In this document: positions 3,693 to 37,130 of the stretch, in pieces
How the letters are laid out: the number at the start of each line of letters is the position of its first letter
Numbering within the stretch: position 1 is the first letter of the stretch
From: a virus
Taxonomy: Duplodnaviria > Heunggongvirae > Uroviricota > Caudoviricetes
Strand: one strand, 5' to 3'
DNA length: 40,276 nt
Virus record (IMG/VR): IMGVR_UViG_2713896903_000005
Notes under the pieces: model-generated
Seen by the model: only the letters and a program-made list of their open reading frames with translations
The model's database searches: none
What the model was told of the DNA's origin: nothing
Position numbers and translations under genes: made by a program

Positions 3693-3725
3693 AACTTGTT
3701 ACCTCGGTCTGTTATCGTTGAGGTA

Positions 3726-3754
3726 ATAATTATGCGTATTTGGTTTGGTGTCAA
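3726..3754 (-). promoter_or_regulatory. putative leftward early promoter (PL-like)
   Basis: Minus strand: -35 TTGACA (3754..3749), 17-nt spacer, -10 AATTAT (3731..3726); flanked by TTACC-N5-GGTAA sites at 3774..3788 (perfect) and 3712..3726 (one mismatch, over the predicted start site). Confidence 0.45.
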
Positions 3755-3773
3755 TAGATATGAGTTAAAAAAA

Positions 3774-3788
3774 TTACCCGCAAGGTAA
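3774..3788. promoter_or_regulatory. operator-like palindrome TTACCCGCAAGGTAA (OL-like)
   Basis: Perfect TTACC-N5-GGTAA just upstream of the PL-like -35. Confidence 0.5.
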
Positions 3789-3800
3789 TTGCGTGGGCAA

Positions 3801-3823
3801 TAAAAAAGCCGCCAGAAGGCGGC
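3801..3823 (-). terminator. intrinsic terminator downstream of the repressor gene
   Basis: Minus strand: GCCGCC-TTCT-GGCGGC hairpin followed by TTTTTTA. Confidence 0.6.
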
Positions 3824-3845
3824 TTACTTTCTGAAAACTATAGTT

Positions 3846-4430
3846 TTATTGTTTGCTTTTTTCGTTCTGGTTGATGACAAATTCAATGTAACTTTCGATC
3901 TTTGCTTTCTCGGTTTCGGGTAACAATGCGTAGCGCGAGCGGTCATAGTTGATGGTTGCAGGGTCGTGCGGGTGAATCAGTAATTCATAGCCGTGACGCC
4001 CGAATGCGGATGCCACATTCTCCAGGGTGGAAATGGAAACGCTAACCTCATTGTTTAACAGGCGGCTGATTGTCACCTGGGCGACGCCGGATGCGCGGTG
4101 TAGTTTTCCCTGCGTTGAAAGGTCGCGGCTTTCGCTCATCCAGCGTTCCAGGTTGTGAGCCGCCAGCTGACCTATATCGCTTGGTCCGACAGGCTGAAAA
4201 CCTTCCTGAGAAAGCGAGCGATCGATATCAAGCCAGTTACGGGGTTTATTGGCGGCAGCTTCAATTTTTCGAGCAACCTGGTCGCCGATAACCTTTTTGC
4301 CAAGAGCCCAGCGGTTTACCAGATTTGCCTGAGTTCCAAGTTTTTCTGCCATCCGCGTCTGAACACCATTGAATTCACGGTCGATCAAGTCGTTGAGATT
4401 TTGCCTGCGGACGTCCTGGATACTTTTCAT
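3846..4430 (-). CDS. prophage repressor (CI-like), tandem HTH, no peptidase domain
   Basis: 194 aa with two XRE-type HTH-like segments (residues about 10-60 and 105-150) and no S24/LexA-like Ala-Gly...Ser...Lys signature; divergent from the Cro-like gene. Confidence 0.7.
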   Translation of the reverse strand: MKSIQDVRRQNLNDLIDREFNGVQTRMAEKLGTQANLVNRWALGKKVIGDQVARKIEAAANKPRNWLDIDRSLSQEGFQPVGPSDIGQLAAHNLERWMSESRDLSTQGKLHRASGVAQVTISRLLNNEVSVSISTLENVASAFGRHGYELLIHPHDPATINYDRSRYALLPETEKAKIESYIEFVINQNEKSKQ

Positions 4431-4485
4431 TTTCTGGAAAATCGCCTCATATATGAATCAGTAGATGATTCAATTTAAAGCAATA

Positions 4486-4500
4486 TTACCCAACAGGTAA
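4486..4500. promoter_or_regulatory. operator-like palindrome TTACCCAACAGGTAA (OR region)
   Basis: Perfect site in the repressor/cro intergenic region; weaker sites at 4503..4517 and 4534..4548. Confidence 0.5.
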
Positions 4501-4530
4501 ATGCACCTCATAGGTAACTATCCTTGATTT

Positions 4531-4559
4531 TTGTTACCTTATGGGTGAATATTTATTAT
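4531..4559 (+). promoter_or_regulatory. putative rightward early promoter (PR-like) with overlapping operator
   Basis: -35 TTGTTA (4531..4536), 17-nt spacer, -10 TATTAT (4554..4559); one-mismatch site TTACCTTATGGGTGA (4534..4548) lies between the -35 and -10. Confidence 0.45.
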
Positions 4560-4584
4560 CTGAAATAAATATCAGGCAATAGCT

Positions 4585-4815
4585 ATGAGCGATAACGGAC
4601 ATTTCGATTTCAAAAAGCACTGGCTTGCACTTACTCCGGATGAGCGTGAAGCCTTCGCACAGGAAGCCGGAACGACGAGTCACTATATCCAGACTCACTT
4701 AACAGGTAAGCGCAAAATGCCAGGTAAGGTATTGATGAATGGGCTTTTTAAAGCCTGTAAAACAAGACAATGGCTGCGCTCAAAAGCAGAACTGGCATAC
4801 TTCTTCTACTCATGA
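4585..4815 (+). CDS. Cro-like small HTH regulator (YdaS/Cro-type)
   Basis: 76 aa, divergent from the repressor and first gene of the rightward operon; central helix-turn-helix-like region. Confidence 0.6.
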   Translation: MSDNGHFDFKKHWLALTPDEREAFAQEAGTTSHYIQTHLTGKRKMPGKVLMNGLFKACKTRQWLRSKAELAYFFYS

Positions 4816-4836
4816 TATCCAGCCACAAACCTCTGT

Positions 4837-4860
4837 AGACCGCCATCCGGCGGTCTTTTC
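4837..4860 (+). terminator. intrinsic terminator after cro (tR1-like)
   Basis: GACCGCC-ATCC-GGCGGTC hairpin followed by TTTT. Confidence 0.6.
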
Positions 4861-4965
4861 ATATCTATTCGTACCTCAAAGGTAATAAAAAACCAAATCT
4901 GGTTGATCTTTTTTTTGTGTCAGCACAAAATAACCGTAATCCCAATACTAATAACAGGGCTTACC

Positions 4966-5166
4966 ATGGAAATCATTACACGTATTGATGCCGCAAAGCG
5001 CGGGCTTAAACGCTACTACACCGGAAAACCATGTAAGCACGGACATGACAGTGAACGCTGGGTTTACAACGGACACTGTGTTGAGTGCACCATGGAATCA
5101 AACCGTCGCATCAGGGCAGAGATTAAGCAGATCATGATTAATTCCTCCCCACAACATTCAAGCTGA
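4966..5166 (+). CDS. small zinc-ribbon protein (66 aa), function unknown
   Basis: CKHGH...CVEC motif; internal ATG at 4966 chosen over the TTG at 4903; in the position of cII-like genes but without obvious HTH. Confidence 0.45.
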   Translation: MEIITRIDAAKRGLKRYYTGKPCKHGHDSERWVYNGHCVECTMESNRRIRAEIKQIMINSSPQHSS

Positions 5167-5181
5167 TAGCGGAGATTAATC

Positions 5182-5997
5182 ATGAGCAGACATGCAACAG
5201 ATTGGGCCTGGGAGACAGATCCAGGTAGCTCGTCATTAAAGCTCATACTGCTCTCGATGGCTGACAGAGCCGATGAATATAACCTCTGCTACCCCAGCAT
5301 AGAACGCCTCGTTAAAGACACTTGCCTGAATAAAAAAACCGTACAGGCCGGGCTTATATCGCTCATGAAAATGGGGCTTATTTCAGATACCGGAGAGAGA
5401 AAGGGAGCGACGAAAAGAGTGCGGGTTTTCTCTCTTAATATAACCAAAAACGGGAACATTAAAGGCAACCGGGAAGGGAGCAATGAACCCGAAAACGGTA
5501 ATGTTCCCGAAAACGGGAATATACCCAAAAACGGGATGTTGAATGATCCCAAAAACGGGATGTTGAATGATCCCAAAAACGGGATCCAGAACCAGTCATA
5601 TAACCAGTCATTTAACCAAGAGAGGGAGAGCAGGACAAAAACCGGGGATTCTGTGCCTCATGACCCCGGCGCAAACAACGCCGTGATGAATAACTTTGTT
5701 CCTCCTGGTGGGCCAGGGCAATTAGGCAAATTTGTCATGCATGAACAATGGCAGCCATCAGATGACTTTCTTCGGAAAAGCTCATTGCAGGGGATCTACC
5801 TGGACAGTCTGCCAACGGCACAGGAACTTGCAGAGTTCAGAATTTACTGGATGGCTGAGGGTAAGGCATACCATCAGGCACAGTGGGAGCAGAAGCTGGC
5901 AAGGCGGCTGCAGATTAGCAGACAGAAGCTATCAACATTACCTGATAACAACGTTCCGCACTGGAACAGCCCTGAAGCATGGGAGGATTTCTTGTGA
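5182..5997 (+). CDS. replication initiator (lambda O-like)
   Basis: 271 aa; HTH-like N-terminus; central peptide repeats (PENGNVPENGNIPKNGMLNDPKNGMLNDPKNG) encoded by DNA iterons; SD GGAG; immediately upstream of the P-like gene. Confidence 0.7.
   Translation: MSRHATDWAWETDPGSSSLKLILLSMADRADEYNLCYPSIERLVKDTCLNKKTVQAGLISLMKMGLISDTGERKGATKRVRVFSLNITKNGNIKGNREGSNEPENGNVPENGNIPKNGMLNDPKNGMLNDPKNGIQNQSYNQSFNQERESRTKTGDSVPHDPGANNAVMNNFVPPGGPGQLGKFVMHEQWQPSDDFLRKSSLQGIYLDSLPTAQELAEFRIYWMAEGKAYHQAQWEQKLARRLQISRQKLSTLPDNNVPHWNSPEAWEDFL
5488..5584. repeat. iteron array (putative ori) inside the O-like gene
   Basis: Five copies of CCC(G/A)AAAACGG(G/T)A starting at about 5488, 5506, 5524, 5548 and 5572 (spacing 18, 18, 24, 24 bp), followed by a more AT-rich stretch. 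Confidence 0.6.
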
Positions 5998-6779: not shown

Positions 6780-6816
6780 TACCAGCGCGATAGCGCATTT
6801 TTTTACGCCCCAATAG

Positions 6817-6831
6817 TTACCTATTAGGTAA
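6817..6831. promoter_or_regulatory. operator-like palindrome TTACCTATTAGGTAA
   Basis: Perfect site, part of the 17-bp palindrome GTTACCTATTAGGTAAC, upstream of a candidate promoter. Confidence 0.5.
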
Positions 6832-6850: not shown

Positions 6851-6879
6851 TTGATTTCGTGTCTTATGTGGTTTTTAAT
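6851..6879 (+). promoter_or_regulatory. candidate promoter for the nin-like operon
   Basis: -35 TTGATT (6851..6856), 17-nt spacer, -10 TTTAAT (6874..6879); operator-like sites upstream and immediately downstream. Confidence 0.35.
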
Positions 6880-6893
6880 TACCTTAGAGGTAA
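6879..6893. promoter_or_regulatory. operator-like palindrome TTACCTTAGAGGTAA
   Basis: Perfect site overlapping the predicted start site and the SD of the 6897 gene. Confidence 0.45.
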
Positions 6894-6896
6894 ATC

Positions 6897-7241
6897 ATGA
6901 GAAAACAGATACAGGCTCTTGGTCGACTCAAAACAGGCCAGATGAACAAAACAGAATCTGCGTATTGCCAGCACCTTGAGCAGCGTAAACGTGCAGGGGA
7001 AATCGCCTGGTATCGATTCGAGGGTATCAAGCTACGGTTAGCTGACAACACGTTCTATACGCCCGATTTTGCTGTGATGCTCGCCACCGGCGAGATGGAA
7101 CTGCACGAAGTGAAAGGTTTCTGGACCGACGACGCCAGGGTGAAAACCAAAGTCGCCGCAGATCAGTATCCGTTCCGAATCATCGGGGTAACGGTTAAGC
7201 CAAAGAAAGCAGGTGGTGGCTGGAACATCGAAGAGTTCTGA
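6897..7241 (+). CDS. DUF1064-like phage protein (predicted PD-(D/E)XK-type nuclease)
   Basis: 114 aa; YTPDF...ELHEVKG pattern resembles D...E.K nuclease cores found in this phage family. Confidence 0.5.
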   Translation: MRKQIQALGRLKTGQMNKTESAYCQHLEQRKRAGEIAWYRFEGIKLRLADNTFYTPDFAVMLATGEMELHEVKGFWTDDARVKTKVAADQYPFRIIGVTVKPKKAGGGWNIEEF

Positions 7242-9901: not shown

Positions 9902-10232
9902 ATCAGCAGCAGAGCGCAAAGCCGCTCAGAGAGCCAGACAAGCTGCATCTGGTGTGCGTAAGCTGGAAATTGTGCTTGATGCTCAGGAAATTGAAATGCT
10001 GGAGCGTAACTGTGCCACGCGTCGCCCCGGGCGTGCGCCTTACGAATTTGGTGAGTATATAGCGTTACTGATCCGCCAGGATGATGCACGCGTGCGCGGG
10101 CGTATAAAATCGATCAGCAGAAAACGTTGCGGTAAGTGCGGCGAGAGAGTTCCAGTTAATTCATGCCCGTGTAATGGTGACTCGCAATGCTGGGTGACTA
10201 AAGGCTGGCATGAAACGAAATTAATAGTGTGA
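9894..10232 (+). CDS. hypothetical protein with C-terminal Cys cluster
   Basis: ATG at 9894 (ORF-track TTG at 9891); CGKCG...CPC motif near the C-terminus. Confidence 0.4.
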   Translation: MAKSAAERKAAQRARQAASGVRKLEIVLDAQEIEMLERNCATRRPGRAPYEFGEYIALLIRQDDARVRGRIKSISRKRCGKCGERVPVNSCPCNGDSQCWVTKGWHETKLIV

Positions 10233-10240
10233 CATGTCAC
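10229..10240. repeat. 12-bp perfect palindrome GTGACATGTCAC (copy 1 of 3)
   Basis: Identical 12-mer also at 12680..12691 and 30539..30550; all three sit at gene or module junctions. Confidence 0.6.
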
Positions 10241-10493: not shown

Positions 10494-10504
10494 GCATGGT
10501 ACTA

Positions 10505-10519
10505 TTACCACAACGGTAA
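10505..10519. promoter_or_regulatory. operator-like palindrome TTACCACAACGGTAA
   Basis: Perfect site; an adjacent one-mismatch site at 10523..10537 ends at the terS start codon. Confidence 0.5.
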
Positions 10520-10536
10520 CTATTACCACGGTGGTT

Positions 10537-11133
10537 ATGATGCCTGCTGAACCTAAAACCTATAAACGCAAATCAACGCAATTTAAGCCACTAACAGCAA
10601 TGCAGGAGGCTTATTGCCAGTCATACATCAAAACGCCTGAAAACCAGACTCAGGCAGCGATTAACGCAGGATTCTCCCCAAATACAGCGGCAGTTAAAGC
10701 CAGTGTCATGATGCGCGATGAACGCATTCAAAAACGCATTGCCGAGTTGATGGAGGAGCGCAACAAACGAATGCGCGTCAGTGCTGATTACGTTCTCATG
10801 CGCCTGGTGGAGATCGACCAGATGGACGTGATCGACATCCTCAACGACGATGGGAGCCTTAAACCAATCCGTGAGTGGCCGAAAATCTGGCGCACTACGC
10901 TTAGTGGCTTTGATCTGTCATCGACCATCATGAACATGAACGAGGATTCGATAGAGACAATCCTCAAAAAAATTAAATGGCCTGACAAGGTGAAGAACCT
11001 TGAGCTGATTGGTAAGCATGTTGATGTCAACGCGTTCAAAGAACGCCTGGATGTTAATGTGAATGTGACAATTGCTGATCGCATAGCGGCAGCCAGGAAG
11101 CGACTCAAAGAACGTCAGGATGGTAATCAGTGA
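10537..11133 (+). CDS. terS: terminase small subunit
   Basis: Segment AYCQSYIKTPENQTQAAINAGFSPNTAAVKASVMMRDERIQKRI is typical of Terminase_2-type small subunits; ATG at 10537 chosen because the ORF-track TTG at 10459 would read through a terminator and operator sites. Confidence 0.7.
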   Translation: MMPAEPKTYKRKSTQFKPLTAMQEAYCQSYIKTPENQTQAAINAGFSPNTAAVKASVMMRDERIQKRIAELMEERNKRMRVSADYVLMRLVEIDQMDVIDILNDDGSLKPIREWPKIWRTTLSGFDLSSTIMNMNEDSIETILKKIKWPDKVKNLELIGKHVDVNAFKERLDVNVNVTIADRIAAARKRLKERQDGNQ

Positions 11134-12679: not shown

Positions 12680-12691
12680 GTGACATGTCAC
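12680..12691. repeat. 12-bp perfect palindrome GTGACATGTCAC (copy 2 of 3)
   Basis: Between the convergent terL and gp49-like genes, immediately after hairpin AGCCAGC-N6-GCTGGCT (12656..12675). Confidence 0.6.
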
Positions 12692-13085: not shown

Positions 13086-13111
13086 TTAAAAAAATGCCCG
13101 GCGAACCGGGC
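13086..13111 (-). terminator. terminator-like hairpin between the tRNA and the gp49-like gene
   Basis: Minus strand: GCCCGG-TTCG-CCGGGC followed by ATTTTTTT, only about 10 nt before the gp49-like SD and start; a second hairpin plus T-run lies at about 13190..13231. Confidence 0.45.
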
Positions 13112-13274
13112 GAACTGGAAGCAATGAGTTATGCCTTCCGTGGCTGTACTGGTTTACAGCATGAAGTCATCGCAATGGCGTCCTGCTGTAAAAAGGGCGG
13201 TGATAGTCCTTCAAGGGAAACCATCACCGCCAATCACCTGGAACTTCTGGTATTACGGTCCTTAGGCGTGATTC

Positions 13275-13351
13275 TGGCGTGGCATGCAGGATTCGAACCT
13301 GCGACCAACCGCTTAGAAGGCGGTTGCTCTGTCCAGCTGAGCTAATGCCAC
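13275..13351 (-). tRNA. tRNA-Arg (anticodon UCU)
   Basis: 77-nt cloverleaf read by hand on the minus strand: acceptor GTGGCAT/ATGCCAC, D-stem GCTC/GAGC, anticodon stem ACCGC/GCGGT with loop CTTCTAA, T-stem GCAGG/CCTGC with loop TTCGAAT, discriminator G, encoded CCA. Confidence 0.85.
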
Positions 13352-13673: not shown

Positions 13674-13688
13674 TTACCCGAAAGGTAA
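13674..13688. promoter_or_regulatory. operator-like palindrome TTACCCGAAAGGTAA
   Basis: Perfect site in the 430-bp noncoding region upstream of the portal/head operon. Confidence 0.5.
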
Positions 13689-13778
13689 TAATTTGTGCGT
13701 TAAATGTCAACTATCTACGATAAATAAATCATATATGGTTAAATTGGTAATAATTTAATTGCGTACGGAGTCATTGAT

Positions 13779-19485: not shown

Positions 19486-21956
19486 TGGCTATCAGTTGGA
19501 TCCAGCCCAGCTTTGCCGGTGGTGAGATTGGACCGTCGTTGTACGGTCGTATCGACATGGCGAAGTACCAGGTGGCATTGCGCAAGTGCGATAACTTTAT
19601 CGTGCGGCAGTATGGCGGCGTTGAGAATCGACCTGGTACGCGTTTTGTCGGTGCCGCCAAATACCCAAATCGGAAATGCCGCCTGATCCCGTTCCAGTTC
19701 TCGACGGTTCAGACCTATGCTCTGGAGTTCGGGCACCAGTACATGCGCGTTATCAAAGATGGTGCATTGGTGCTGAACAGCAGCAATGTTATTTATGAAA
19801 TTGCCACGCCATATACTGAAGCCGATCTGTTCCGAATTAAATTCACGCAAAGCGCCGACGTGCTTACGCTGGTTCACCCTGCATACCCGCCGAAAGAGTT
19901 GCGCCGCTATGCGCATGACAACTGGCAACTGGTTGATGTGGTAACGAAGAACGGGCCATTTGAAGATATCAATATTGACGAGTCAGTGACGGTTTATGCC
20001 AGCGCCAGCACCGGGACAATTACGTTAACGGCAAGCGCCTCTATTTTTGGCGCGGAGCAGGTAGGCAAATTGTTCTATCTGGAACAGCCTGCAGTGGATT
20101 CGGTGCCAGTATGGGAAACCAGTAAGAGTACGTCGATTGGCGATATTCGCCGTGCAGACAGTAACTACTATCGCGCCGTTACAGCAGGCAAAACAGGTAC
20201 TTTGCGCCCTTCGCATACAGAAGGCACATCATGGGATGGCTGGGGCGGATCCGGTGATGATGATACTGGCATTGAGTGGGAATATCTGCACAGTGGTTTT
20301 GGCATTGCCCGTATCACTGCTGCAAATGGAACTACTGCAACTGCCGAGGTGATTTCCTATATCCCTTCGCAGGTAGTTGGCGAGGATAATGCCAGCTATA
20401 AATGGGCTAAATATGCCTGGAACAGTGTTAATGGTTATCCTGGCACTGTTGTTTATTATCAACAACGTCTTTACTTCGCCGCATCGACTGCGTTCCCTCA
20501 GACTATCTGGGCCAGCCGTACCGGGGATTATAAGGATTTTGGCAAAAGCAATCCTACGCAGGATGACGACAGAATTATCTACACCTATGCCGGGCGTCAG
20601 GTTAATGAGATCCGCCACCTGATTGATGTTGGTTCGCTGGTGGCGCTGACTTCCGGAGGTGAGTACGTCATCACCGGCGACCAGAACAAAGTGTTAACCC
20701 CATCATCATTTGCATTCAGCTCTCAGGGATCAAATGGCTCAAGCAACGTCCCACCAATTGCTGTGGCGAATATTGCTCTGTTCGTCCAGGAGAAAGGCAG
20801 CGTTGTCCGTGATCTGGCCTACTCATTCGATGTTGACGGCTATCAGGGGAACGACCTGACCATCCTTGCTAATCATCTTTTTCAGAAGCACAGCATTGTT
20901 GACTGGTGCTTCTCGATTGTCCCTTACTCCAGCGCCTTCTGTATTCGTGATGACGGTAAATTACTGGTGATGACCTATTTGCGTGATCAGCAGGTTTTTG
21001 CATGGGCACCACAGTCCAGTACCGGAAAATATGAAAGCACATGCAGTATCAGCGAAGGCAATGAAGATGCGGTGTATTTCGTCGTTAACCGAACCGTTAA
21101 CGGGCAAACAGTGAGATACATCGAGCGGCTGTCCAGCCGTTTATTTACCAGCGATGAAGATGCTTTCTTTGTTGATTCTGGCCTTAGCTATGATGGAAGA
21201 AATACGTCTGACAGAACGATGACCATCACCGGTGGTTCTGGTGAATGGGATTACCGTGCGGAATATACAATCAGTGTTTCTGGTGGTGCGTACTTCACCA
21301 GTAGTGATGTCGGCGCGCAACTACAGTTCCCTTATACCGGAACTGATCCTGATACTGGCGATGAAGTGTCAAAAGAATTACGTTGCGACATTATTTCTGT
21401 AACCAGCAATACCGCTGTAGTGGTTCGTGCTAACAGGAACGTCCCTCCATCCCTCAGGAATGTGGCCACCACGAACTGGCAGATGGCGCGCCGGACATTT
21501 GGAGGCCTGTCTCATCTTGAAGGCCAGACCGTAAACATTCTCTCTGATGCGAACGTGGAACCACAGAAAGTGGTTTCCGGAGGTGCCGTCACGCTGGAAT
21601 CTCCGGGGGCTGTAGTGCACATCGGCCTGCCAATAACTGCTGAATTCGAAACACTGGATATCAACATTAACGGACAGGAAACGCTGCTGGACAAAAAACA
21701 GGTGATCTCCTCCGTTACTCTGGTTGTGAATGCCAGTCGCGGCATCTTGGCGACTACGCCCGGCGGTAAATGGTACGAATATCCACAGCGTGAATTCGAG
21801 TTCTACGATGATCCTGTTGATGATGCTACCGGAAAAGTAGAAGTGAAACTGGACAGTAACTGGGGCAAAAACGGACGTGTAAAAATCCGTCAGCTTGATC
21901 CGTTGCCGCTGTCTGTTCTTGCCGTTATTCCTCGCCTTACTGTTGGGGGGTTCTGA
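19485..21956 (+). CDS. tail tubular protein B-like (nozzle), tentative
   Basis: 823 aa; TGATG overlap with the upstream gene; size and position match gp12-type tail tube proteins. Confidence 0.45.
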   Translation: MAISWIQPSFAGGEIGPSLYGRIDMAKYQVALRKCDNFIVRQYGGVENRPGTRFVGAAKYPNRKCRLIPFQFSTVQTYALEFGHQYMRVIKDGALVLNSSNVIYEIATPYTEADLFRIKFTQSADVLTLVHPAYPPKELRRYAHDNWQLVDVVTKNGPFEDINIDESVTVYASASTGTITLTASASIFGAEQVGKLFYLEQPAVDSVPVWETSKSTSIGDIRRADSNYYRAVTAGKTGTLRPSHTEGTSWDGWGGSGDDDTGIEWEYLHSGFGIARITAANGTTATAEVISYIPSQVVGEDNASYKWAKYAWNSVNGYPGTVVYYQQRLYFAASTAFPQTIWASRTGDYKDFGKSNPTQDDDRIIYTYAGRQVNEIRHLIDVGSLVALTSGGEYVITGDQNKVLTPSSFAFSSQGSNGSSNVPPIAVANIALFVQEKGSVVRDLAYSFDVDGYQGNDLTILANHLFQKHSIVDWCFSIVPYSSAFCIRDDGKLLVMTYLRDQQVFAWAPQSSTGKYESTCSISEGNEDAVYFVVNRTVNGQTVRYIERLSSRLFTSDEDAFFVDSGLSYDGRNTSDRTMTITGGSGEWDYRAEYTISVSGGAYFTSSDVGAQLQFPYTGTDPDTGDEVSKELRCDIISVTSNTAVVVRANRNVPPSLRNVATTNWQMARRTFGGLSHLEGQTVNILSDANVEPQKVVSGGAVTLESPGAVVHIGLPITAEFETLDININGQETLLDKKQVISSVTLVVNASRGILATTPGGKWYEYPQREFEFYDDPVDDATGKVEVKLDSNWGKNGRVKIRQLDPLPLSVLAVIPRLTVGGF

Positions 21957-30245: not shown

Positions 30246-30542
30246 ATGCAAGCGATAGGATTCATTGTTTATATCGTCGTTGGTCTTTTTCAGTTGGCAG
30301 CAATTATGGCTGGGCTTGAATCATGGTGGGGATTGCACTGGATAATTGCAGCCCCCATTGCTTTCATCGTGAGCTATATTCCATTTGTTGGAGCGATTGT
30401 TGGTATGGTTGGCGCTGTGGATGTATGGCGGTGGGAGTGGTGGCAGGCTGGCCTTCTCTTCTTTGGTGGGATCATCTTTGCTATTGTCTGCGGTGGAATG
30501 TCATCATTTTTCGAATGGCTATCATTCAGAAAAGGGACGTGA
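30246..30542 (+). CDS. AT-rich moron: small integral membrane protein
   Basis: 98 aa with two to three hydrophobic helices; SD AGGTGA; followed by a palindrome and a strong terminator. Confidence 0.5.
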   Translation: MQAIGFIVYIVVGLFQLAAIMAGLESWWGLHWIIAAPIAFIVSYIPFVGAIVGMVGAVDVWRWEWWQAGLLFFGGIIFAIVCGGMSSFFEWLSFRKGT

Positions 30543-30550
30543 CATGTCAC
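30539..30550. repeat. 12-bp perfect palindrome GTGACATGTCAC (copy 3 of 3)
   Basis: Overlaps the stop codon of the membrane-protein moron and directly precedes a terminator. Confidence 0.6.
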
Positions 30551-30830: not shown

Positions 30831-31343
30831 TTCTTCATCTTGATTATTTTTATTTGGTCTGTCGTTTCTACCAAGAATAAATACAGAAGCCAAACCAATT
30901 AGATCAACAGTTATTAATGTACCAGCAAATACTGTATCACCGTTCCAAGCAAAAAGAGTGGCAATAGCAAGAATAAGAATTGTGACAGTGAAAGCCATCC
31001 ACTGACCGCGCTTATCTTTATATATTGCACCAGACATAGCCATATATTCCATGCTATGACGATGAGCCTGTTCCTTTTCGCTCCTGACCATTATTCTTTC
31101 GGCTCCGTTATCTACGATTTCGTTGTATTCACGGAGCATTGATGGTGGAGGCAGAGGTCCGCTAAAAGAACTCTTCTTTACAATCGCCATGAACTGAGGC
31201 CGTTCAAGTAAGCGTTGGAGAATGGCTGGGTTTTCAACCAACTCTCCTTCGATTTCCTTGACCTTTTCCTCAGTTACCTTTTCCTGCTCATCACCGGGCT
31301 GTGGCAAGCTGACGTCTTGCTTTTCTTGCACGCAGTCGCTCAT
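30828..31343 (-). CDS. DUF2335-like membrane protein
   Basis: 171 aa; soluble N-terminal region with PPPSMLREYNEIVDNGAERIMVRSEKEQAHRH followed by two C-terminal transmembrane helices. Confidence 0.5.
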   Translation of the reverse strand: MSDCVQEKQDVSLPQPGDEQEKVTEEKVKEIEGELVENPAILQRLLERPQFMAIVKKSSFSGPLPPPSMLREYNEIVDNGAERIMVRSEKEQAHRHSMEYMAMSGAIYKDKRGQWMAFTVTILILAIATLFAWNGDTVFAGTLITVDLIGLASVFILGRNDRPNKNNQDEE

Positions 31344-31506
31344 ATGGCCTCATACTTATCCTTAAGTCATCACCTACAGCCTGAAAGTCATTTCTTATTG
31401 ACTCTGCATCTGAATTACTAGATAGCAGCTTTGTATAATCTGTAGATGGAACCAAATCCAAGATACTACCTGCTGCACGCATAATCCTGCGGGTTGAGCG
31501 CAACAT
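31291..31506 (-). CDS. hypothetical small protein (71 aa)
   Basis: Strong SD AGGAGGT 5 nt before the ATG at 31506; 3' end overlaps the start of the DUF2335-like gene by about 50 nt in another frame. Confidence 0.35.
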   Translation of the reverse strand: MLRSTRRIMRAAGSILDLVPSTDYTKLLSSNSDAESIRNDFQAVGDDLRISMRPYERLRARKARRQLATAR

Positions 31507-31565
31507 ATCGTACCTCCTATTTAACCAAAGGCTTAATTACCTTTGGAGTAAACTTAATTAAAAAA

Positions 31566-31775
31566 CTACTTCCTTACAGTGGCAAGATCCTGTTTAACAA
31601 TTGCAGCAGCGAGACGACGCATCTCCTTAACTTCAGGAAGCTCAGAAATTTGCTGTGATGAAATATATACACCACCACGCTTGTTAACCTGCGCTGACGC
31701 CGGAACTTCTGCATTTTTTGCCTGAGGGCTGAGTGCATTATCCCTCGTTTTTGTACGAGCGGACCAAAATCCCAT
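31566..31775 (-). CDS. hypothetical small protein (69 aa)
   Basis: Strong SD GAGGAGGAG before the ATG at 31775; promoter-like TTGCAG-17-TACTAT upstream with an operator-like palindrome over the start site. Confidence 0.45.
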   Translation of the reverse strand: MGFWSARTKTRDNALSPQAKNAEVPASAQVNKRGGVYISSQQISELPEVKEMRRLAAAIVKQDLATVRK

Positions 31776-31801: not shown

Positions 31802-31816
31802 TTACCTTTAGGGTAA
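31802..31816. promoter_or_regulatory. operator-like palindrome TTACCTTTAGGGTAA
   Basis: Perfect site immediately downstream of a minus-strand -10-like TACTAT (31822..31817). Confidence 0.5.
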
Positions 31817-31888: not shown

Positions 31889-32599
31889 TCAGAAGAACCC
31901 TGCCTTGTCGTTGATGTACTCCGCGTGCGTCTGGATATCACGCAGGCATTTGCTCACACCAACGATGTAGCAGAACATGGTGGTCAGCTCCGCCGCCGCG
32001 CCCGATACGTCGTGCCCGTCGTCCTGCAACTGGTTTAGCAGATTCATCAGCAGTGAGTTCTCCGTCAGGCCGAGAACACCAGACGGCGAGTGAATCAGGC
32101 TGCGGTAGCCGGGCTTCAGCGGGGCGCTGTAGGTTTTGTTCTCTATCTTCATTGCCTGCATCACTGCTGACGCCGTGGCGTTGGCTACCTGGTCGGCAAC
32201 CATCTTTATGCGTTCTTCCTGCGGGAGCGAGTTTTTAATGTAACTTCCGGTGCGGCGGATCTGAGGAAGTACCTCACCTGTAACCCATTTACGAAAGCGG
32301 TAGGGGATAGTGCCTGGTGTCACTGCGTCGCGGCAGCGGAGGATCAGTGTGTAGAGGCCTGACTCGGAGATGATGTTGATCTCTTTTACTCGGCGGTCAA
32401 AAATTACACGATGTTCATGCCCTATGTTGAACATAGACCTTTCATCATCATCCAGTTTTTCAAGTGCTTGGGTGACGTTTTGGATACGCAGCGCACTACA
32501 AACGTCTTGGGCTACAAACCATGGTTGGCCATCGATAATGATGGAACGGATAGGGTTAACAGATTCAAATTTGAAGATGGCAGTTTGAGCATTAGCCAT
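31889..32599 (-). CDS. Bro-N domain antirepressor
   Basis: N-terminal Bro-N-like segment (FKFESVNPIRSIIIDGQPWFVAQDVCSAL); C-terminal domain shared with the short 33748..34005 product; ATG at 32599 with SD GGAG (ORF-track start 32614). Confidence 0.65.
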   Translation of the reverse strand: MANAQTAIFKFESVNPIRSIIIDGQPWFVAQDVCSALRIQNVTQALEKLDDDERSMFNIGHEHRVIFDRRVKEINIISESGLYTLILRCRDAVTPGTIPYRFRKWVTGEVLPQIRRTGSYIKNSLPQEERIKMVADQVANATASAVMQAMKIENKTYSAPLKPGYRSLIHSPSGVLGLTENSLLMNLLNQLQDDGHDVSGAAAELTTMFCYIVGVSKCLRDIQTHAEYINDKAGFF

Positions 32600-32753
32600 G
32601 GTGGTTATCTCCACTTAGTGATTTTAATCACCACCGCAACGCCAATTACTGGTGGTGAACTGGACAAGGTTGGCGTACCGGCCTAAGTGGTACCGGCGTC
32701 CTTTCGGACCCCTGCCCAGCCCACCATAATTCGGATATAGCTGTGCTTAACGC

Positions 32754-32777
32754 ATAAAAAAACCACGTCTGGCGTGG
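32754..32777 (-). terminator. intrinsic terminator or attenuator inside the antirepressor leader
   Basis: Minus strand: CCACG-CCAGA-CGTGG hairpin followed by TTTTTTTAT, about 150 nt upstream of the Bro-N start. Confidence 0.5.
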
Positions 32778-32868
32778 TATGCGCCACTTAGTAACTCGGG
32801 ACGCCAATCCCGGCACTGGATTTTGCCAGTGCCCGATTACTATGGCACAAGAGGAGTGCTATGTAAAT

Positions 32869-32883
32869 TTACCGCAAAGGTAA
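32869..32883. promoter_or_regulatory. operator-like palindrome TTACCGCAAAGGTAA
   Basis: Perfect site overlapping the predicted start site of a minus-strand promoter (-35 TTGATT, -10 TTATCA region, about 32890..32918). Confidence 0.5.
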
Positions 32884-32961: not shown

Positions 32962-32976
32962 TTACCTTTAAGGTAA
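32962..32976. promoter_or_regulatory. operator-like palindrome TTACCTTTAAGGTAA
   Basis: Perfect site 20 nt upstream of the 32997 start codon. Confidence 0.5.
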
Positions 32977-32996: not shown

Positions 32997-33725
32997 ATGG
33001 AAGTTTTCTGGATAGTTGTTGGTGTGGTTGCGGTGATTATTTACGTTATCAACCAGAACAAGACTAAGATCTCTGATCGTACGGTCGTTAATCATAACAA
33101 AACGATAAAGACCGAAGATGGGGAGATAACGATTAATCGTACACAGGTGATAGAACACACCTCCACTCAGTTTCAAAAAACGGGAGATAATGCGCCTAAT
33201 ATTTCCGTACCTCCTGCTTATGATAGCGCGGTAATCCAGACATATTATAAACAGCAGGAGTTAGCAAAAGAGAGGCAACTGATTCAGCCAAAGCCATTTA
33301 CAGCAGAGCTTCCACCTGGAGTGTCAACGCGTCCGGCATATCATGGAAGATTCCCTGGTGATGACGTATCGTCTCAGTCACCTAAAAAAGCACCTCAGGC
33401 AGTATCAGAGCCAGCAAGAATACCTTCTGTATCGCCGTCAAAAGAAGAATCAGCTAACGAAGTTTCAAGTGCCCGCAAGCAGTGTTTGCGATGCAGAATA
33501 AACCTTCCATATGAAAAATTCAGGAAATCGTCAAAAAATCCAGATGGATTGACTAAGTGGTGTGCAAGGTGTCTAGATGGCCCAAAGAATACACGTCATA
33601 TGAAGTGGTGCCCAATTTGTAATGTCCGCAGAAAACGAACCAGCTTTTACCCTAATAATCAAAATGCGGACGGCTTAATGGCATGGTGCAAAACGTGCTG
33701 GGATGAGCACAAAGCGAAACGATAG
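32997..33725 (+). CDS. membrane-anchored protein with duplicated Cys-rich zinc-ribbon-like motifs
   Basis: 242 aa; N-terminal transmembrane helix (FWIVVGVVAVIIYVI), Pro/Ser-rich linker, two C-terminal repeats (CLRCR...DGLTKWCARC and CPIC...DGLMAWCKTC); AT-rich. Confidence 0.5.
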   Translation: MEVFWIVVGVVAVIIYVINQNKTKISDRTVVNHNKTIKTEDGEITINRTQVIEHTSTQFQKTGDNAPNISVPPAYDSAVIQTYYKQQELAKERQLIQPKPFTAELPPGVSTRPAYHGRFPGDDVSSQSPKKAPQAVSEPARIPSVSPSKEESANEVSSARKQCLRCRINLPYEKFRKSSKNPDGLTKWCARCLDGPKNTRHMKWCPICNVRRKRTSFYPNNQNADGLMAWCKTCWDEHKAKR

Positions 33726-33750
33726 GCCGCTCTTGCGGCCTTTAAATTTA
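33725..33750. terminator. terminator hairpin between convergent genes
   Basis: GGCCGC-TCTT-GCGGCC hairpin followed by TTTAAATTT on the plus strand and a T-rich run on the minus strand. Confidence 0.55.
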
Positions 33751-34005
33751 CCGGGTTTGTTTTCGTAATTGTTCGGCACAATAGTCGAGATGTGTTTGCA
33801 GATCCTGCATAGACATCTGCGAGCTGGTGACGTAGTTAATCAGTGCAGTCAGTTCGGCAAGTGGGCCATCGACATTAAATCCATCCTTATCGAGATCCCG
33901 GAGTAATTTCATCAAGTGCGATCCCTCCACCAGTGACCTGACGCCTCCCGGCGTGTGAATCCTTTCGGTAAATCCGTCTTCCAGTGGATAGTGATACTGC
34001 TGCAT
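33748..34005 (-). CDS. short antirepressor-like protein, probably SOS-regulated
   Basis: About 85 aa from the ATG at 34005 (SD GGAGAAG); matches the C-terminal domain of the Bro-N antirepressor (TPGGVRSLVEGSHLMKLLRDLDKDGFNVDGPLAELT vs SPSGVLGLTENSLLMNLLNQLQDDGHDVSGAAAELT); a LexA box lies 20-40 nt upstream. Confidence 0.5.
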   Translation of the reverse strand: MQQYHYPLEDGFTERIHTPGGVRSLVEGSHLMKLLRDLDKDGFNVDGPLAELTALINYVTSSQMSMQDLQTHLDYCAEQLRKQTR

Positions 34006-34024
34006 CTTATCTTCTCCATGCAAT

Positions 34025-34044
34025 AACTGTATATTTATACAGTA
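34025..34044. promoter_or_regulatory. LexA (SOS) box
   Basis: AACTGTATATTTATACAGTA matches the CTGT-N8-ACAG consensus with an AT-rich spacer; overlaps the promoter region of the short antirepressor gene. Confidence 0.7.
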
Positions 34045-34081
34045 GCAAATAATTTGTTTGCTATCCAGCACGTTTTGCAAA

Positions 34082-34096
34082 TTACCTGAAAGGTAA
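34082..34096. promoter_or_regulatory. operator-like palindrome TTACCTGAAAGGTAA
   Basis: Perfect site between the antirepressor gene and the tailspike gene. Confidence 0.5.
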
Positions 34097-34200
34097 TATC
34101 TATTCGTATTTATGGGTTATCTATCCATATATGATTTTTAAGGTAATAGAATAACCGGATATGCGGCGCAACGGGTGCTGCGACTATCTGGAGATTTAAC

Positions 34201-36111
34201 ATGACGGTCTCAACAGAAGTTGACCACAACGAATATACAGGTAACGGTGTTACAACTACGTTCCCTTATACCTTTAGGATTTTCCAGAAATCTGATCTGG
34301 TAGTACAAGTGGTTGACCTTGATGAAAATATCACAGTTCTTGCTCTTGATACTGATTACACAGTTACCGGGGCGGGAGGGTATAACGGTGGTAATGTAAT
34401 TCTGTCGAAGGCGTTGGCTAACGGTTATCAGATTTCTATGTATCGAGAGCTACCGGTTACGCAGGAAACCGATCTGCGCAATCAGGGTAAGTTCTTTGCA
34501 GAGGTGCATGAGGATGCGTTTGATAAGCTAACGATGCTGATCCAGCAGGTTCGCAGTTTGTTTACCTTGGCGCTTCGCAAGCCATCATTCGTGGCAAACT
34601 ATTATGATGCTTTGAATAATTACATCCGTAATCTTCGTGACCCGTCTCATCCTCAGGATGCAGCCACCAAGAATTATGTAGATACGCTGGCCAACGGAAA
34701 CCTAAACAGGGTGCTAAGAGTTCCAGAAGCATCCATACCTTCTCTTCCTGACGTTAATGGAAGGAGAAATAAAGCATTAAGTTTTGATGCATCTGGTAAC
34801 CCCTTGCTTTTAGATCCTGCAGGCAGTGGATTATGGGGATATGTTCTTATCGATTCGTTCCAGGCTGGAGCAAAAATATCAACCCGTTACGAAGCATTGC
34901 ATTGGCCTCTTCCTGATGGGGATGGTGAATATTATCGTTGGGATGGAGTATTGCCTAAGGAAGTCCCTGCAGGATCAACCCCTGACTCAACTGGTGGAAT
35001 AGGAATTGGGGCGTGGGTTGGTATAGGTGATGCATCATTAAGATCTGACTTGGCAGATAATCTAATCCCAGGAGCAAGCTTGGTATCAATACATTCTGGG
35101 ACGGTTAACGATGCTCTTGTGTATAACACTCCAGAAATGTTTGGCGCGCGACCAGACGGTTCTGTAGATGCATCTTCAGCTATTATTGCAGCAGGAAAGG
35201 ATGGCATTGGTAGTTATGGTGTAAATAAAGTTCTCCTCACAGGAGGTTCAGAAAGAACATTTGATATACAGTCTGATACAAATTCTCTTATCCTGTCATT
35301 CGGAAGACCATTTATTAATGGTATGGGAAATGGTGAGATAATCGATGTAAGAAGAACGATAAATCGCCCTATTAATAATAAAGGCCATTCTTCTTATCTT
35401 ATAGCTCACCGTGGGTATGTGAATGTACATGCTGAAAATACGGTCGCATCAATTAGTCTTGCGGCAAAATCTTGCCATGCTGTAGAGGTTGATGTTCAGA
35501 CCACATCTGACGGTCGATATGTTGTTTTTCATGACTTTACCACTGGTAATTTAATGAATAATGATCTAACTGTAGCAACATCAACCCTAGAACAACTTCA
35601 GGCATTAAAATATAAGAAAATGATTGGTACAAAATATGAGTACCATTGCAGGATTCCTACATTTGAGCAAGTTCTTGACGCTTGCCGTAGAACAGGCACT
35701 GAAATTTGGTGGGAGATTATGTCAACCAATACACCAGATCAAGTTGATGGTATGATACAGGCCGTCATTGATTATGGAATGGAACACAATGCTGTTTGCA
35801 CCACCGGAGTAGTATCTAACTTATATCTTCTCCGCAATAAATCTGAAGATATGAGAGTTCAATTAACTTCATCCAGCGCGACCCCCGATGAAACAGTGAA
35901 AGATATGGTTCGTCATCTTCGCCATATTGGTAATGGAACTCTTGCAATTGAGTATATTGACATGACAAACAGGCCATGGATACCTGAATATTGTTACCAA
36001 CGAGGCGTGGATATTGTTGTTTACACATTGTTTGCGTCTTATCAGGCGGTTCAAGCAAGAAACATCGGGATTCGGCAGATCATGTGTAACCAACAAGTAG
36101 GAGTTGAATAA
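34201..36111 (+). CDS. tailspike with C-terminal glycerophosphodiester phosphodiesterase (GDPD)-like domain
   Basis: N-terminus (NEYTGNGVTTTFPYTFRIF) matches the conserved particle-binding domain of podovirus tail fibres and tailspikes; C-terminal region carries GDPD-type motifs (IAHRG...ENT...VEVDV...DGRYVVFHD, later RIPTFEQVL...EIWWEI); SD GGAG. Confidence 0.7.
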   Translation: MTVSTEVDHNEYTGNGVTTTFPYTFRIFQKSDLVVQVVDLDENITVLALDTDYTVTGAGGYNGGNVILSKALANGYQISMYRELPVTQETDLRNQGKFFAEVHEDAFDKLTMLIQQVRSLFTLALRKPSFVANYYDALNNYIRNLRDPSHPQDAATKNYVDTLANGNLNRVLRVPEASIPSLPDVNGRRNKALSFDASGNPLLLDPAGSGLWGYVLIDSFQAGAKISTRYEALHWPLPDGDGEYYRWDGVLPKEVPAGSTPDSTGGIGIGAWVGIGDASLRSDLADNLIPGASLVSIHSGTVNDALVYNTPEMFGARPDGSVDASSAIIAAGKDGIGSYGVNKVLLTGGSERTFDIQSDTNSLILSFGRPFINGMGNGEIIDVRRTINRPINNKGHSSYLIAHRGYVNVHAENTVASISLAAKSCHAVEVDVQTTSDGRYVVFHDFTTGNLMNNDLTVATSTLEQLQALKYKKMIGTKYEYHCRIPTFEQVLDACRRTGTEIWWEIMSTNTPDQVDGMIQAVIDYGMEHNAVCTTGVVSNLYLLRNKSEDMRVQLTSSSATPDETVKDMVRHLRHIGNGTLAIEYIDMTNRPWIPEYCYQRGVDIVVYTLFASYQAVQARNIGIRQIMCNQQVGVE

Positions 36112-36923
36112 TGAATATTTCAAGAATGGGGTGGAAACATTACGTAACCTCTGGAACTGGTACAATAAATATCAGTGAAGATAGAGAAACTTTATACATG
36201 TCTGCAAGCGCTGGGCTAACAACTTTAGCAACAACGGAAATTGTTGCTGATGCTGAGAGTGAAATTGAGGTGACATTCGAGGCTAGATATATAGCCAATT
36301 CAATCACAGGTACTGATTATGCGATTTGTGGTATTTATTATTTTGGATTTCAGAACGAGAACGGTGGTGGTTTAGGTAACAGCTTCTCGGAGTTGCGCAT
36401 AACATCTAACGAGCTACAAACATATACGGCGAAATTGATTGTGCCAGCTACTAAAAACGAACTTAATTCTAATAGAATTGAGATCAGGTTTAATATTCCT
36501 AACAATGCTGACGGTTCTCTTTATGTTATTGGATATCCACGGGTGTCTATTAAGCGTTCTGCAATTGGGGTTTCGAGAATTATCGCAAAAGGTATCATAG
36601 ATCTCGTTCAGAATTCCGGCTCTGATGAAGTAGTTGTTAAGTTAATTAGTTGTAACAATGTTTCCAATGTTACGATGACATCAAGTAATCAAAATGTAGA
36701 AATAAATCTTGAAAGTTTTCCGAGAATTTACCCGGAAACGCCAATGTTTACCGCTACGATGATTCCGCAGGGAGATGAAGTTCCTGGAATGTATCAGCCC
36801 TTATATTTAACGTTTGATGCAAAAAGCAAAAAACTAACAATGGCATTTAAAAATGCATCTGGATCACGAATTGCAATATATCAAGCAAGACATCTGCGGT
36901 TTAACTTCACAATAACAATCTGA
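36111..36923 (+). CDS. hypothetical protein translationally coupled to the tailspike
   Basis: 270 aa; TAATG stop/start overlap with the tailspike gene and SD AGGAG; AT-rich, beta-rich. Confidence 0.45.
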   Translation: MNISRMGWKHYVTSGTGTINISEDRETLYMSASAGLTTLATTEIVADAESEIEVTFEARYIANSITGTDYAICGIYYFGFQNENGGGLGNSFSELRITSNELQTYTAKLIVPATKNELNSNRIEIRFNIPNNADGSLYVIGYPRVSIKRSAIGVSRIIAKGIIDLVQNSGSDEVVVKLISCNNVSNVTMTSSNQNVEINLESFPRIYPETPMFTATMIPQGDEVPGMYQPLYLTFDAKSKKLTMAFKNASGSRIAIYQARHLRFNFTITI

Positions 36924-37130
36924 GTTTACACAAACACAATCACAAACCCATTATGGCTCATATTGGAGAAAGATTAGCACAAAACACCCCATAACCTTAA
37001 CAAGGTATGATTCTGGGAAAATAACCCAAAAGGTAATTTCCACAATGGTGTTAGCTTGTTTTAATACATATACGGTTTGTTGTGTATAATTGACTCACCA
37101 ACTAAGGGGGTTATTCATGTACAGTAAACG

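Follow-up and report, generated by a model that had tools for sequence, protein, structure and literature searches.

How does a single short palindrome, TTACC-N5-GGTAA, come to stand before so many transcription units of one prophage, and which protein reads it? The window, i.e. the whole 40,276-nt stretch of DNA analysed here, is a Uetakevirus (phiV10/ε15-like) prophage adjoining the host genes yfgI/yfgH. The original prediction, made by eye, had listed ten perfect and six one-mismatch copies, all in intergenic or promoter regions, and warned that copies inside genes might have been missed. An exhaustive scan of both strands recovered precisely these ten and six starts (Table 1) and found no perfect or one-mismatch copy in coding sequence anywhere in the window. 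Shuffled sequences are expected to contain 0.03 perfect copies and 0.53 copies with at most one mismatch, and a Markov-1 model of intergenic DNA predicts 0.0075 and 0.18, respectively. All 16 copies are intergenic, although only 8.9% of the window is non-coding, a distribution with a chance of about 2e-17. Two-mismatch matches are found in coding sequence in 25 cases and in an intergenic region in one (4503, 17 bp after 4486). Scanning 171 kb of E. coli chromosome gave one perfect match, eight with one mismatch and 98 with two, as compared to 10, 6 and 26 in the 40 kb of the window; perfect copies are about 40-fold enriched in the prophage and two-mismatch matches are at background level. The palindrome is strongly non-random, and neither coding DNA nor the host DNA scanned contains it at a similar density. 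The extended consensus proposed earlier stands as far as an A/T-rich N5 core is concerned, but the core is not specifically nnAAA and the flanking A of ATTACC is present in only 56% of 127 distinct sites from ten genomes.

Table 1. Operators, promoters and regulatory genes predicted in the prophage (window coordinates; promoters given as -35 element, spacer length and -10 element).
Feature	Position	Strand	Palindrome	Remarks
OL1	3712..3726		one mismatch	abuts PL -10, covers predicted start site
PL	TTGACA(3754-3749)-17-AATTAT(3731-3726)	-		PWM score 12.1
OL2, auxiliary operator	3774..3788		perfect	62 bp upstream of OL1
Rep, master (CI-like) repressor	3846..4430	-		N-terminal HTH DNA-binding domain; dimerisation and tetramerisation (Ant-binding) domains
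PRM, predicted rep promoter	TTTACC(4501-4496)-18-TAAATT(4477-4472)			prediction recurs in 7 of the genomes examined
OR3-like operator	4486..4500		perfect	over -35 and spacer of PRM
OR2-like weak operator	4503..4517		two mismatches	17 bp from 4486
OR1-like operator	4534..4548		one mismatch	between PR -35 and -10
PR	TTGTTA(4531-4536)-17-TATTAT(4554-4559)			
Cro-like small repressor, 76 aa	4585..4815	+		first gene of rightward operon, divergent from rep; phrog_35 'transcriptional repressor', E=5.6e-13
Operator behind cro	4871..4885		one mismatch	just past terminator (4837-4856); centre ~60 bp upstream of predicted start of replication-gene promoter (4903-4931)
Upstream operator, nin-like promoter	6817..6831		perfect	62 bp from 6879
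Core operator, nin-like promoter	6879..6893		perfect	TTGATT(6851-6856)-17-TTTAAT(6874-6879)
terS operator	10505..10519		perfect	directly after extended -10 TGgTACTAT (10497-10505); syntenic with annotated ε15 site 12-27
Second terS operator	10523..10537		one mismatch	18 bp downstream; over terS ribosome-binding region (ATG ~10540)
Operator of strong conserved leftward promoter	13674..13688		perfect	encloses -10 of TTGACA(13710-13705)-17-TACCTT(13687-13682); syntenic with annotated ε15 repressor site 2931-2947
Operator between gene 31566-31775 and small ORF 31291-31506	31537..31551		one mismatch	ORF has a strong Shine-Dalgarno sequence
Core operator, gene 31566-31775	31802..31816		perfect	TTGCAG(31844-31839)-17-TACTAT(31821-31816), - strand
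Core operator, leftward antirepressor-leader promoter	32869..32883		perfect	TTGATT(32912-32907)-18-TATCAT(32888-32883)
Operator of gene 32997-33725	32962..32976		perfect	over -10 of divergent rightward promoter
Small antirepressor Ant	33748..34008	-		88% identical to SPC32H Ant; phrog_450
LexA box CTGTATATTTATACAG	34027..34042			over ant promoter, 19 nt upstream of ant ATG; perfect CTGT-N8-ACAG match
Operator, divergent ant-tailspike region	34082..34096		perfect	directly upstream of ant promoter; syntenic with annotated ε15 site 19895-19911
Operator upstream of lysis cassette	37022..37036		one mismatch	centre ~68 bp before start of best promoter TTAATA-18-TATAAT (37061-37090); relatives ε15 24704, phiV10 24692

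Is the motif tied to a particular protein? When all 5-Nx-5 palindromes were counted without bias, TTACC-N5-GGTAA ranked first in ten of ten genomes encoding a homologue (43–100% identity) of Rep, the product of the gene at 3846-4430. Comparison of the site maps of phiV10, ε15, SPC32H, Tyrion, BUCT711 and four further prophages revealed syntenic positions at PL, OR and the nin-like promoter, before terS, before the head genes and in the ant/tailspike region; the operator at 4871 also occurs in phiV10 and Tyrion, which have the GTACC mismatch in common, and in BUCT711. The half-site is constant across the ten genomes examined, and in aligned orthologous promoter regions the arms are invariant and the N5 cores and flanks variable, as seen for the arms and spacer of OL2 in nine genomes. 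Moreover, the GenBank record of ε15 annotates seven sites as protein_bind 'repressor', all seven of which read (A)TTACC-N5-GGTAAT and which include those preceding terS, the head genes and the tailspike; phiV10-type records are without annotation of these sites. The earlier proposal of one repressor acting on dispersed operators is thereby supported.

The original prediction had named the 3846-4430 protein as the obvious binder, and besides the ε15 annotation several observations argue for this assignment: 1) a phmmer search against the PDB aligned Rep over its full length with its homologue SPC32H Rep (5D50 chain A, E=3.5e-42, residues 1-190 versus 2-197), and this match together with the alignments indicates the same architecture of middle and C-terminal oligomerisation/Ant-binding domains; 2) Rep is 99.5% identical to phiV10 gp40 and to ZX5 ORF21, overexpression of which blocks lytic growth, with no free phage and endolysin and holin transcripts decreased by more than 99.9%; 3) Rep is 43% identical overall to the annotated ε15 repressor and to SPC32H Rep, and identity to SPC32H-type Rep is 54% for the DNA-binding domain and 39% elsewhere. 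Secondary descriptions of SPC32H Rep report a tetramer that binds palindromic sites and is taken apart by Ant. Taken together, TTACC-N5-GGTAA very probably serves as operator for Rep, which is the lysogeny repressor in Uetakeviruses of the ε15/phiV10/SPC32H type, an assignment resting on the motif's enrichment and placement, its conservation and the homology of Rep. How could Rep read such a site? The two N-terminal HTH domains of the oligomer would each contact one TTACC arm, presumably through the N36-LVNRW-41 stretch as likely recognition helix, which is invariant in a five-phage alignment; across a broader set of 27 homologues invariance is limited to N36, R40 and W41, with L37 almost invariant.

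The position of the operators relative to promoters suggests how Rep would act. A PWM promoter scan reproduced all five promoter placements proposed earlier (PL, PR, the 6851 promoter and those of the 31566 gene and the antirepressor leader). Five promoters, namely PL, the nin-like promoter and those of terS, the antirepressor leader and the 31566 gene, share the final T of their -10 element with the operator, which begins there and extends over the start site. At PR, PRM, gene 32997 and the leftward promoter at 13674 the operator lies inside the stretch from -35 to -10. In either position bound Rep would keep RNA polymerase off the promoter. The operator-promoter offset peaks sharply at 0 (42 cases), a peak to which the scoring itself contributes, since it takes the aT of aTTACC for the end of a -10 element. 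The right arm of the 6879 operator (GAGGTAA) doubles as Shine-Dalgarno sequence for the ATG at 6897. The 13674 site, which the original prediction assigned to the head operon, is located in the -10 of a leftward promoter directed at gp03 and at the tRNA-Arg gene (13275-13351, minus strand); 62 bp to the right, near the head-operon start, there is a conserved GGTAA half-site (13746-13750).

Second sites at fixed distances are a recurrent element of this arrangement. Across the genomes the spacing of adjacent sites peaks at 62 bp (16 cases), the 18-bp pair recurs 8 times and conserved half-sites are located at +62 and +50 bp, among them GGTAA (34142-34146), which is 50 bp downstream of the 34082 operator and abuts the predicted tailspike -10 TAGAAT. 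The 62-bp and 17/18-bp spacings are common to the window and ε15/SPC32H-type phages. In the immunity region three operators (4486, 4503 and 4534) are found between predicted PRM and PR, spaced by 17+31 bp as compared to 17+30 bp in ε15 (33341/33358/33388). In general, a presumed high-affinity operator is accompanied by a further site, whether complete, weak or half, at 17–18, 48–50 or 62 bp. Since SPC32H Rep is reportedly tetrameric on palindromes, one tetramer would have two pairs of DNA-binding domains.

Could the sites instead, all of them or a subset upstream of -35, be bound by a shared activator, or could Rep itself activate PRM or the lysogenic-conversion genes? The sites at 4871, 34082 and 37022, like the upstream member of each pair at PL and Pnin, are centred about 57–70 bp upstream of the best predicted start, and the lysis-proximal site of ε15 and phiV10 is located in a divergent region beside lysogenic-conversion genes. 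Counting against the repressor reading, no convincing core promoter was assigned to four sites (4871, 34082, 37022 and 31537, the last without a convincing promoter in the PWM scan), and to repress from about -57 to -70 Rep would require a partner site or looping. However, at least nine sites overlap -35, -10 or +1 elements, positions at which a bound protein would be expected to obstruct RNA polymerase, the depositors of ε15 label the sites as repressor sites, and the lysis genes are shut off by overexpression of the near-identical ZX5 repressor, making activation very unlikely. Equally improbable is that another co-inherited protein, for example the Cro-like protein, is the main binder of the dispersed copies and Rep is confined to the immunity region. 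The gene of this PHROG-classified 'transcriptional repressor' is found beside rep in every genome examined, and co-occurrence alone cannot separate the two proteins; the dispersed sites, however, have arms identical to those of OL and OR next to rep, the recognition-helix block of Rep is conserved together with the half-site, and in the ε15 record the distal sites are attributed to the repressor. The Cro-like protein probably also uses the OR operators.

The mycobacteriophage L5 stoperators, bound by gp71, were the precedent suggested originally, and the likeness holds for dispersal, i.e. many copies of one repressor site throughout the prophage, but not for the form and location of the sites. 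L5 sites are asymmetric, oriented with transcription, located within units and act on elongation, whereas those described here are palindromic and hence without orientation, strictly intergenic with none of the 16 in a gene, and mostly coincident with promoter elements. It is extremely unlikely that Rep stops elongating polymerase inside units instead of preventing initiation, even if a roadblock is conceivable at 4871, 10523, 6879 and 31537, which are situated past terminators or over ribosome-binding sites. A non-regulatory motif, be it a bipartite restriction-modification target (some Type I and IIB enzymes recognise sequences of similar 5-N5-5 form), a recombination site or a small hairpin (a weak terminator-like hairpin was flagged at one copy), is barely conceivable, as a modification target should occur beyond 9% of the genome and without fixed promoter offsets, and the stems are just 5 bp and A/T-rich.

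Rep as repressor at dispersed operators invites comparison with two further systems. Phage P1 has operators dispersed through its genome, from which the C1 repressor directly controls many operons; one of these operators, Op51, lies at c4-icd-ant (immI), an operon that encodes an antirepressor behind a C4 antisense-RNA leader. The dispersed-regulon logic and the C4-RNA leader are common to both phages, but P1 operators are asymmetric 17-bp sites whereas the operator here is palindromic, and Rep is of XRE/HTH_3 type and unrelated to C1, with no C1-like family among its profile matches. With lambda the prophage has in common divergent PR and PRM with three shared operators, paired PL operators and an oligomeric repressor able to bridge sites. 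In contrast to lambda, whose late genes use Q antitermination, operators are also found at packaging, tailspike, lysis and accessory units. Furthermore, a Pfam scan of Rep gave HTH families only and no S24 peptidase domain; Rep is not a lambda-type CI with a C-terminal S24 (LexA-like) autocleavage domain and would have to be inactivated by an antirepressor.

The closest relatives are the Rep-Ant-LexA switches of ε15 and SPC32H/SPN1S, with which the prophage shares the palindrome, its syntenic places, a full-length Rep homologue and a small Ant with a LexA box. Different from these phages, the prophage has an inserted block between the structural operon and ant, which contributes three further promoters with operators and, behind an isrK/C4 leader, a second protein with an Ant domain; the promoter at the 32869 operator is predicted to drive this leader together with the antirepressor itself, of Bro-N/Ant-domain type (31889-32614). 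The original prediction made no mention of the SOS-linked small Ant or of its LexA box. The small Ant appears to be under LexA control, judging from the box over its promoter. By homology to SPC32H, induction could proceed in three steps: LexA cleavage would free the small Ant, Ant would disassemble Rep tetramers, and loss of Rep would derepress the second, Rep-controlled protein with an Ant domain.

TTACC-N5-GGTAA thus matches the already recognised Rep operator of ε15/phiV10-type phages, a known system and no discovery. Details added here are the module in which the operator begins on the last T of the -10 element, the conserved 62-bp spacing and the placement of the presumed head-operon site in the leftward tRNA-Arg promoter. 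As every rightward unit is closed by a terminator and transcription restarts at the next unit's own operator-bearing promoter, Rep would silence most units directly in the lysogen and not via a cascade.

A scan of both strands returned ten perfect copies of the palindrome TTACC-N5-GGTAA, where dinucleotide-preserving shuffles give 0.03 expected, and six copies with one mismatch, the total of 16 sites with at most one mismatch comparing with 0.53 expected. These are the copies, with the same starts, that the original prediction had picked out as dispersed operators, and, as it had claimed for the perfect ones, they lie outside genes, 16 of 16, in a gene map made from the ORF list and the phiV10 annotation. 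The non-coding share of the window is 8.9%, the probability of finding all 16 sites in this fraction is about 2e-17, and a first-order Markov model of the non-coding DNA predicts 0.0075 perfect copies. Among the two-mismatch matches 25 of 26 are coding, the sole intergenic one being the weak site 4503, located 17 bp after site 4486. The same count over 171 kb of E. coli chromosome gave 1 perfect match, 8 with one mismatch and 98 with two, as compared to 10, 6 and 26 in the 40 kb of the window. The motif is thus clearly not found at similar density in coding DNA or in the host.

What else could such a palindrome be? The analogy with the stoperators of phage L5, from which a single repressor likewise acts at dispersed sites, fails on asymmetry and on location, as the sites of the window are palindromic and intergenic, unlike the asymmetric L5 sites inside transcription units. 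The palindrome is not a LexA, CRP or Fur site, in agreement with the original prediction; the LexA box of the window is a separate element. Readings as restriction-modification target or as hairpin were rejected as well.

For the operator reading, homology to a known repressor, annotated sites in ε15 and the conservation of the half-site and, for the most part, of the helix agree on Rep, the proposed master repressor, as candidate binder. The 194-residue protein aligns over its whole length with SPC32H Rep (PDB 5D50, E=3.5e-42); its identity is 43% with the annotated ε15 repressor and 99.5% with phiV10 gp40 and ZX5 ORF21. When ZX5 ORF21 was overexpressed, free phage was abolished and transcripts fell by 99.99% for endolysin and by 99.97% for holin (PMC9782041). 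Secondary sources describe SPC32H Rep as having an N-terminal DNA-binding, a dimerisation and a C-terminal tetramerisation domain, and report a protein which sits as tetramer on palindromic sites with DNA-binding domains from different dimers paired, and which is disassembled by the tetrameric antirepressor Ant (PMC9638917; PMC9986798). No S24 peptidase domain was detected in the window Rep by Pfam search, which gives HTH families alone, and this fits a putative inactivation by antirepressor, not RecA-stimulated cleavage.

The block N36-L-V-N-R-W41, which by comparison with the HTH of lambda Cro we take to be the recognition helix, is invariant in an alignment of five phage Reps. Among 27 Rep homologues, down to 42% identity, N36, R40 and W41 never change and L37 hardly does; the block varies only by V38I, N39S and one L37V. 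The window and ε15 Reps are 54% identical in the DNA-binding domain and 39% in the remainder. Scanning viral contigs with Rep returned only copies 99–100% identical, and the DNA-binding domain as sole query gave fragments; a full-length search recovered homologues down to 52% identity, including the N39S and V38I variants, and their contigs bear the same TTACC-N5 palindrome. Helix and operator thus co-occur strictly, and no signal of covariation is possible because the half-site shows no variation. As far as sequence goes, a half-site that never changes and a helix that mostly does not are consistent with Rep as the binder.

Relatives of the window carry the same motif. Every perfect 5-Nx-5 palindrome (x = 2–9) was counted without preselection in the window, phiV10, ε15, SPC32H, Enterobacter phage Tyrion, Klebsiella phage BUCT711 and four prophage contigs with more distant Rep homologues (E. 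coli, Serratia, a metagenome), and TTACC-N5 ranked top in 10 of 10 genomes with 6–11 copies each. Syntenic copies in relatives number two to three left of rep and two to three between rep and the cro-like gene, a pair each before the nin-like operon and before terS, and one each before the head genes, in the ant-tailspike region, before the lysis genes and near attP/int. The copy near attP/int, a one-mismatch operator conserved in relatives, falls outside the window. Moreover, the ε15 GenBank record contains seven features labelled 'protein_bind, repressor, lysogeny', and all seven read (A)TTACC-N5-GGTAAT. Since they match the motif throughout, dispersed operators were already recognised by the ε15 depositors, including those before terS, head genes and tailspike. 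The GenBank records of phiV10-type phages were searched for operator annotation and contain none. The ε15 genome paper is said to give a consensus like ATTACCWDWWNGGTAAT; a text search of the literature for it returned nothing relevant.

The early region of the window is 97–98% identical to phiV10-type Escherichia phages of the genus Uetakevirus (PAS61, phiv142-3, TL-2011b, ZX5 and phiV10) and to many E. coli prophages, and it matches DNA in 3,723 of 5,426 complete E. coli genomes. As host yfgI/yfgH follow at the right end, the window is an integrated prophage, from the adenine-methylase gene through attR, which these host genes would put at roughly 38950–39200; the integrase end lies outside.

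Positions and layout of features in the window and of annotated repressor sites in ε15
Feature	Position	Strand	Sequence or remark
Operators, perfect (starts)	3774, 4486, 6817, 6879, 10505, 13674, 31802, 32869, 32962, 34082
Operators, one mismatch (starts)	3712, 4534, 4871, 10523, 31537, 37022
rep	3846-4430	-	proposed master repressor
Module at PL			TTGACA-17-AATTAT/TACC, PWM score 12.1
Module at nin-like promoter			TTGATT-17-TTTAAT/TACC
Module at promoter of gene	31566-31775
Module at antirepressor-leader promoter			TTGATT-18-TATCAT/TACC, PWM score 11.3
Module at terS			extended -10, TGgTACTAT/TACC
Leftward promoter	13710-13682	-	operator 13674-13688 contains its -10
tRNA-Arg(UCU)	13275-13351	-	faced by leftward promoter, with gp03-like gene
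Terminator-like hairpins			after cro, after P-like gene, before terS, after terL, after structural operon
Bro-N antirepressor	31889-32614	-
C4 antisense RNA and isrK	32648-32731, 32756-32832	-	Bro-N leader; Rfam, above gathering score
Small antirepressor Ant	33748-34008	-
LexA box CTGTATATTTATACAG	34027-34042		perfect; 19 nt upstream of ant ATG
71-aa ORF	31291-31506	-	operator 31537-31551 30 nt upstream
Palindrome GTGACATGTCAC	10229-10240, 12680-12691, 30539-30550
Host yfgI/yfgH	39205-40276	-	right end of window
ε15 annotated repressor sites	12-27, 2931-2947, 19895-19911, 32479-32494, 32554-32570, 32616-32632, 35906-35922		AY150271.2

How are the operators placed with respect to the promoters? 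Sigma-70 promoters were scored with a simple PWM (99.9th percentile in the window, 6.0), used because the built-in consensus scan was too strict for most sites. In a recurring module the first T of the operator is the last T of the -10 hexamer, so that the operator spans roughly -7 to +8. Elsewhere the operator lies inside the promoter, in the spacer of PR, over the -35 of the predicted PRM or over the -10 of gene 32997; at sites 4871, 31537, 34082 and 37022 the scan found no convincing core promoter. Across the ten genomes the operator-to-promoter offsets peak sharply at 0 (42 cases), a peak that is partly built in, the aT of the motif (aTTACC) being read by the PWM as a -10 end; where a consensus -35 stands 17 bp away, the bias plays no part. 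The PL module scores 10.8–12.1 in 9/9 genomes scored.

Furthermore, the spacing between neighbouring sites across genomes takes fixed values, 62 bp being the most frequent (n=16, and one of 63), followed by 18 bp (n=8), 48 bp (n=6) and 17 bp (n=3). At PL and the nin-like promoter each core operator has a second operator 62 bp upstream, and in alignments of eight or nine genomes the arms and a CTATTGA around the -35 are invariant and the N5 cores and flanks variable, which is the footprint of selection on the arms. Half-sites GGTAA also keep their distance from two sites that seemed to stand alone, 62 bp from site 13674 in 9/9 genomes and 50 bp from site 34082, adjoining the predicted tailspike -10, in 5/5 genomes covering the respective region. 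Such distances between a strong site and its partner would suit a Rep tetramer, which offers two pairs of DNA-binding domains, and with spacings this constant natural promoters could serve to test the tetramer-bridging model of SPC32H Rep.

A terminator-like hairpin closes most rightward units, and transcription then restarts at an operator-bearing promoter region, a layout that supports direct control of most transcription units by Rep. The window thereby shows a temperate phage whose units appear nearly all to be held directly by a single repressor under antirepressor control. Site 13674, assigned to the head operon by the original prediction, is real, but the -10 inside it (TACCTT) belongs to a strong promoter that runs leftward, has a perfect TTGACA at a spacing of 17 bp and is conserved in 9/9 genomes. 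The head operon could still be controlled from here via the half-site at +62, albeit less directly. The ORF 13094-13345 (+), which overlaps the tRNA-Arg gene, is probably spurious.

The prophage carries two Ant-domain proteins, as the Bro-N antirepressor shows 42% identity to the small Ant over its last 80 residues and both match phrog_450; one stands behind a LexA box, the other behind a Rep operator. With the small Ant and its LexA box the window bears the putative SOS arm of the switch, and a Rep operator lies immediately upstream of the ant promoter. The promoter of the Bro-N antirepressor carries a core operator, and its leader together with the Bro-N gene resembles the immI (c4-ant) module of P1. 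A second Ant repressed by Rep would give positive feedback once Rep begins to fail. Identity to the SPC32H counterpart is 88% for the small Ant but only 43% for Rep (39% in the Ant-binding part), which suggests module exchange or an Ant working across divergent Reps. Downstream of operator 31537-31551, the 71-aa ORF has a strong AGGAGG ribosome-binding site.

A second palindrome, GTGACATGTCAC, occurs three times in the window (0.03 expected) and is conserved in related Uetakevirus genomes, where two copies flank the terS-terL module and one sits at the structural operon's end, each usually adjoining a rho-independent terminator. The E. coli host loci examined lack it, and the literature searched does not mention it.

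All sequence-level defining features tested for the ε15/SPC32H Rep-operator system were found, and the predicted system is therefore this one, already known, in a phiV10-type prophage. It shares dispersed operators and a C4-RNA antirepressor leader with P1 C1 and a tripartite OR with lambda CI but belongs to neither family. Modest novelty lies in the rule for the promoter-operator junction, in the conserved 62-bp geometry, in the reassigned tRNA promoter and in the family-wide invariance of the half-site, and the result opens no new question. Its value is mainly for annotation, as phiV10-type phages and very common E. coli prophages were deposited without operators; the site map (16 operators, one weak site and two half-sites, with promoters) is directly transferable to those records, and more than 300 IMG/VR contigs encode Rep.

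In lambdoid phages immunity specificity is set by operator recognition. The Rep family examined here (52–100% identity; Escherichia, Salmonella, Klebsiella, Enterobacter, Serratia) has one invariant half-site, mostly conserved residues in the recognition helix and one 62-bp pair geometry, and the Ant-binding part of Rep diverges across the family while the half-site stays fixed. This invariance raises the possibility that operator recognition does not hold immunity specificity in the genus. If the arrangement is functional, it is conceivable, though rather doubtful, that specificity would come from the Rep-Ant interaction or from cell-surface conversion, that Rep would form obligatory micro-loops of about six turns at PL, the nin-like promoter and the tRNA/head region, and that nearly all units would have Rep as their one direct regulator.
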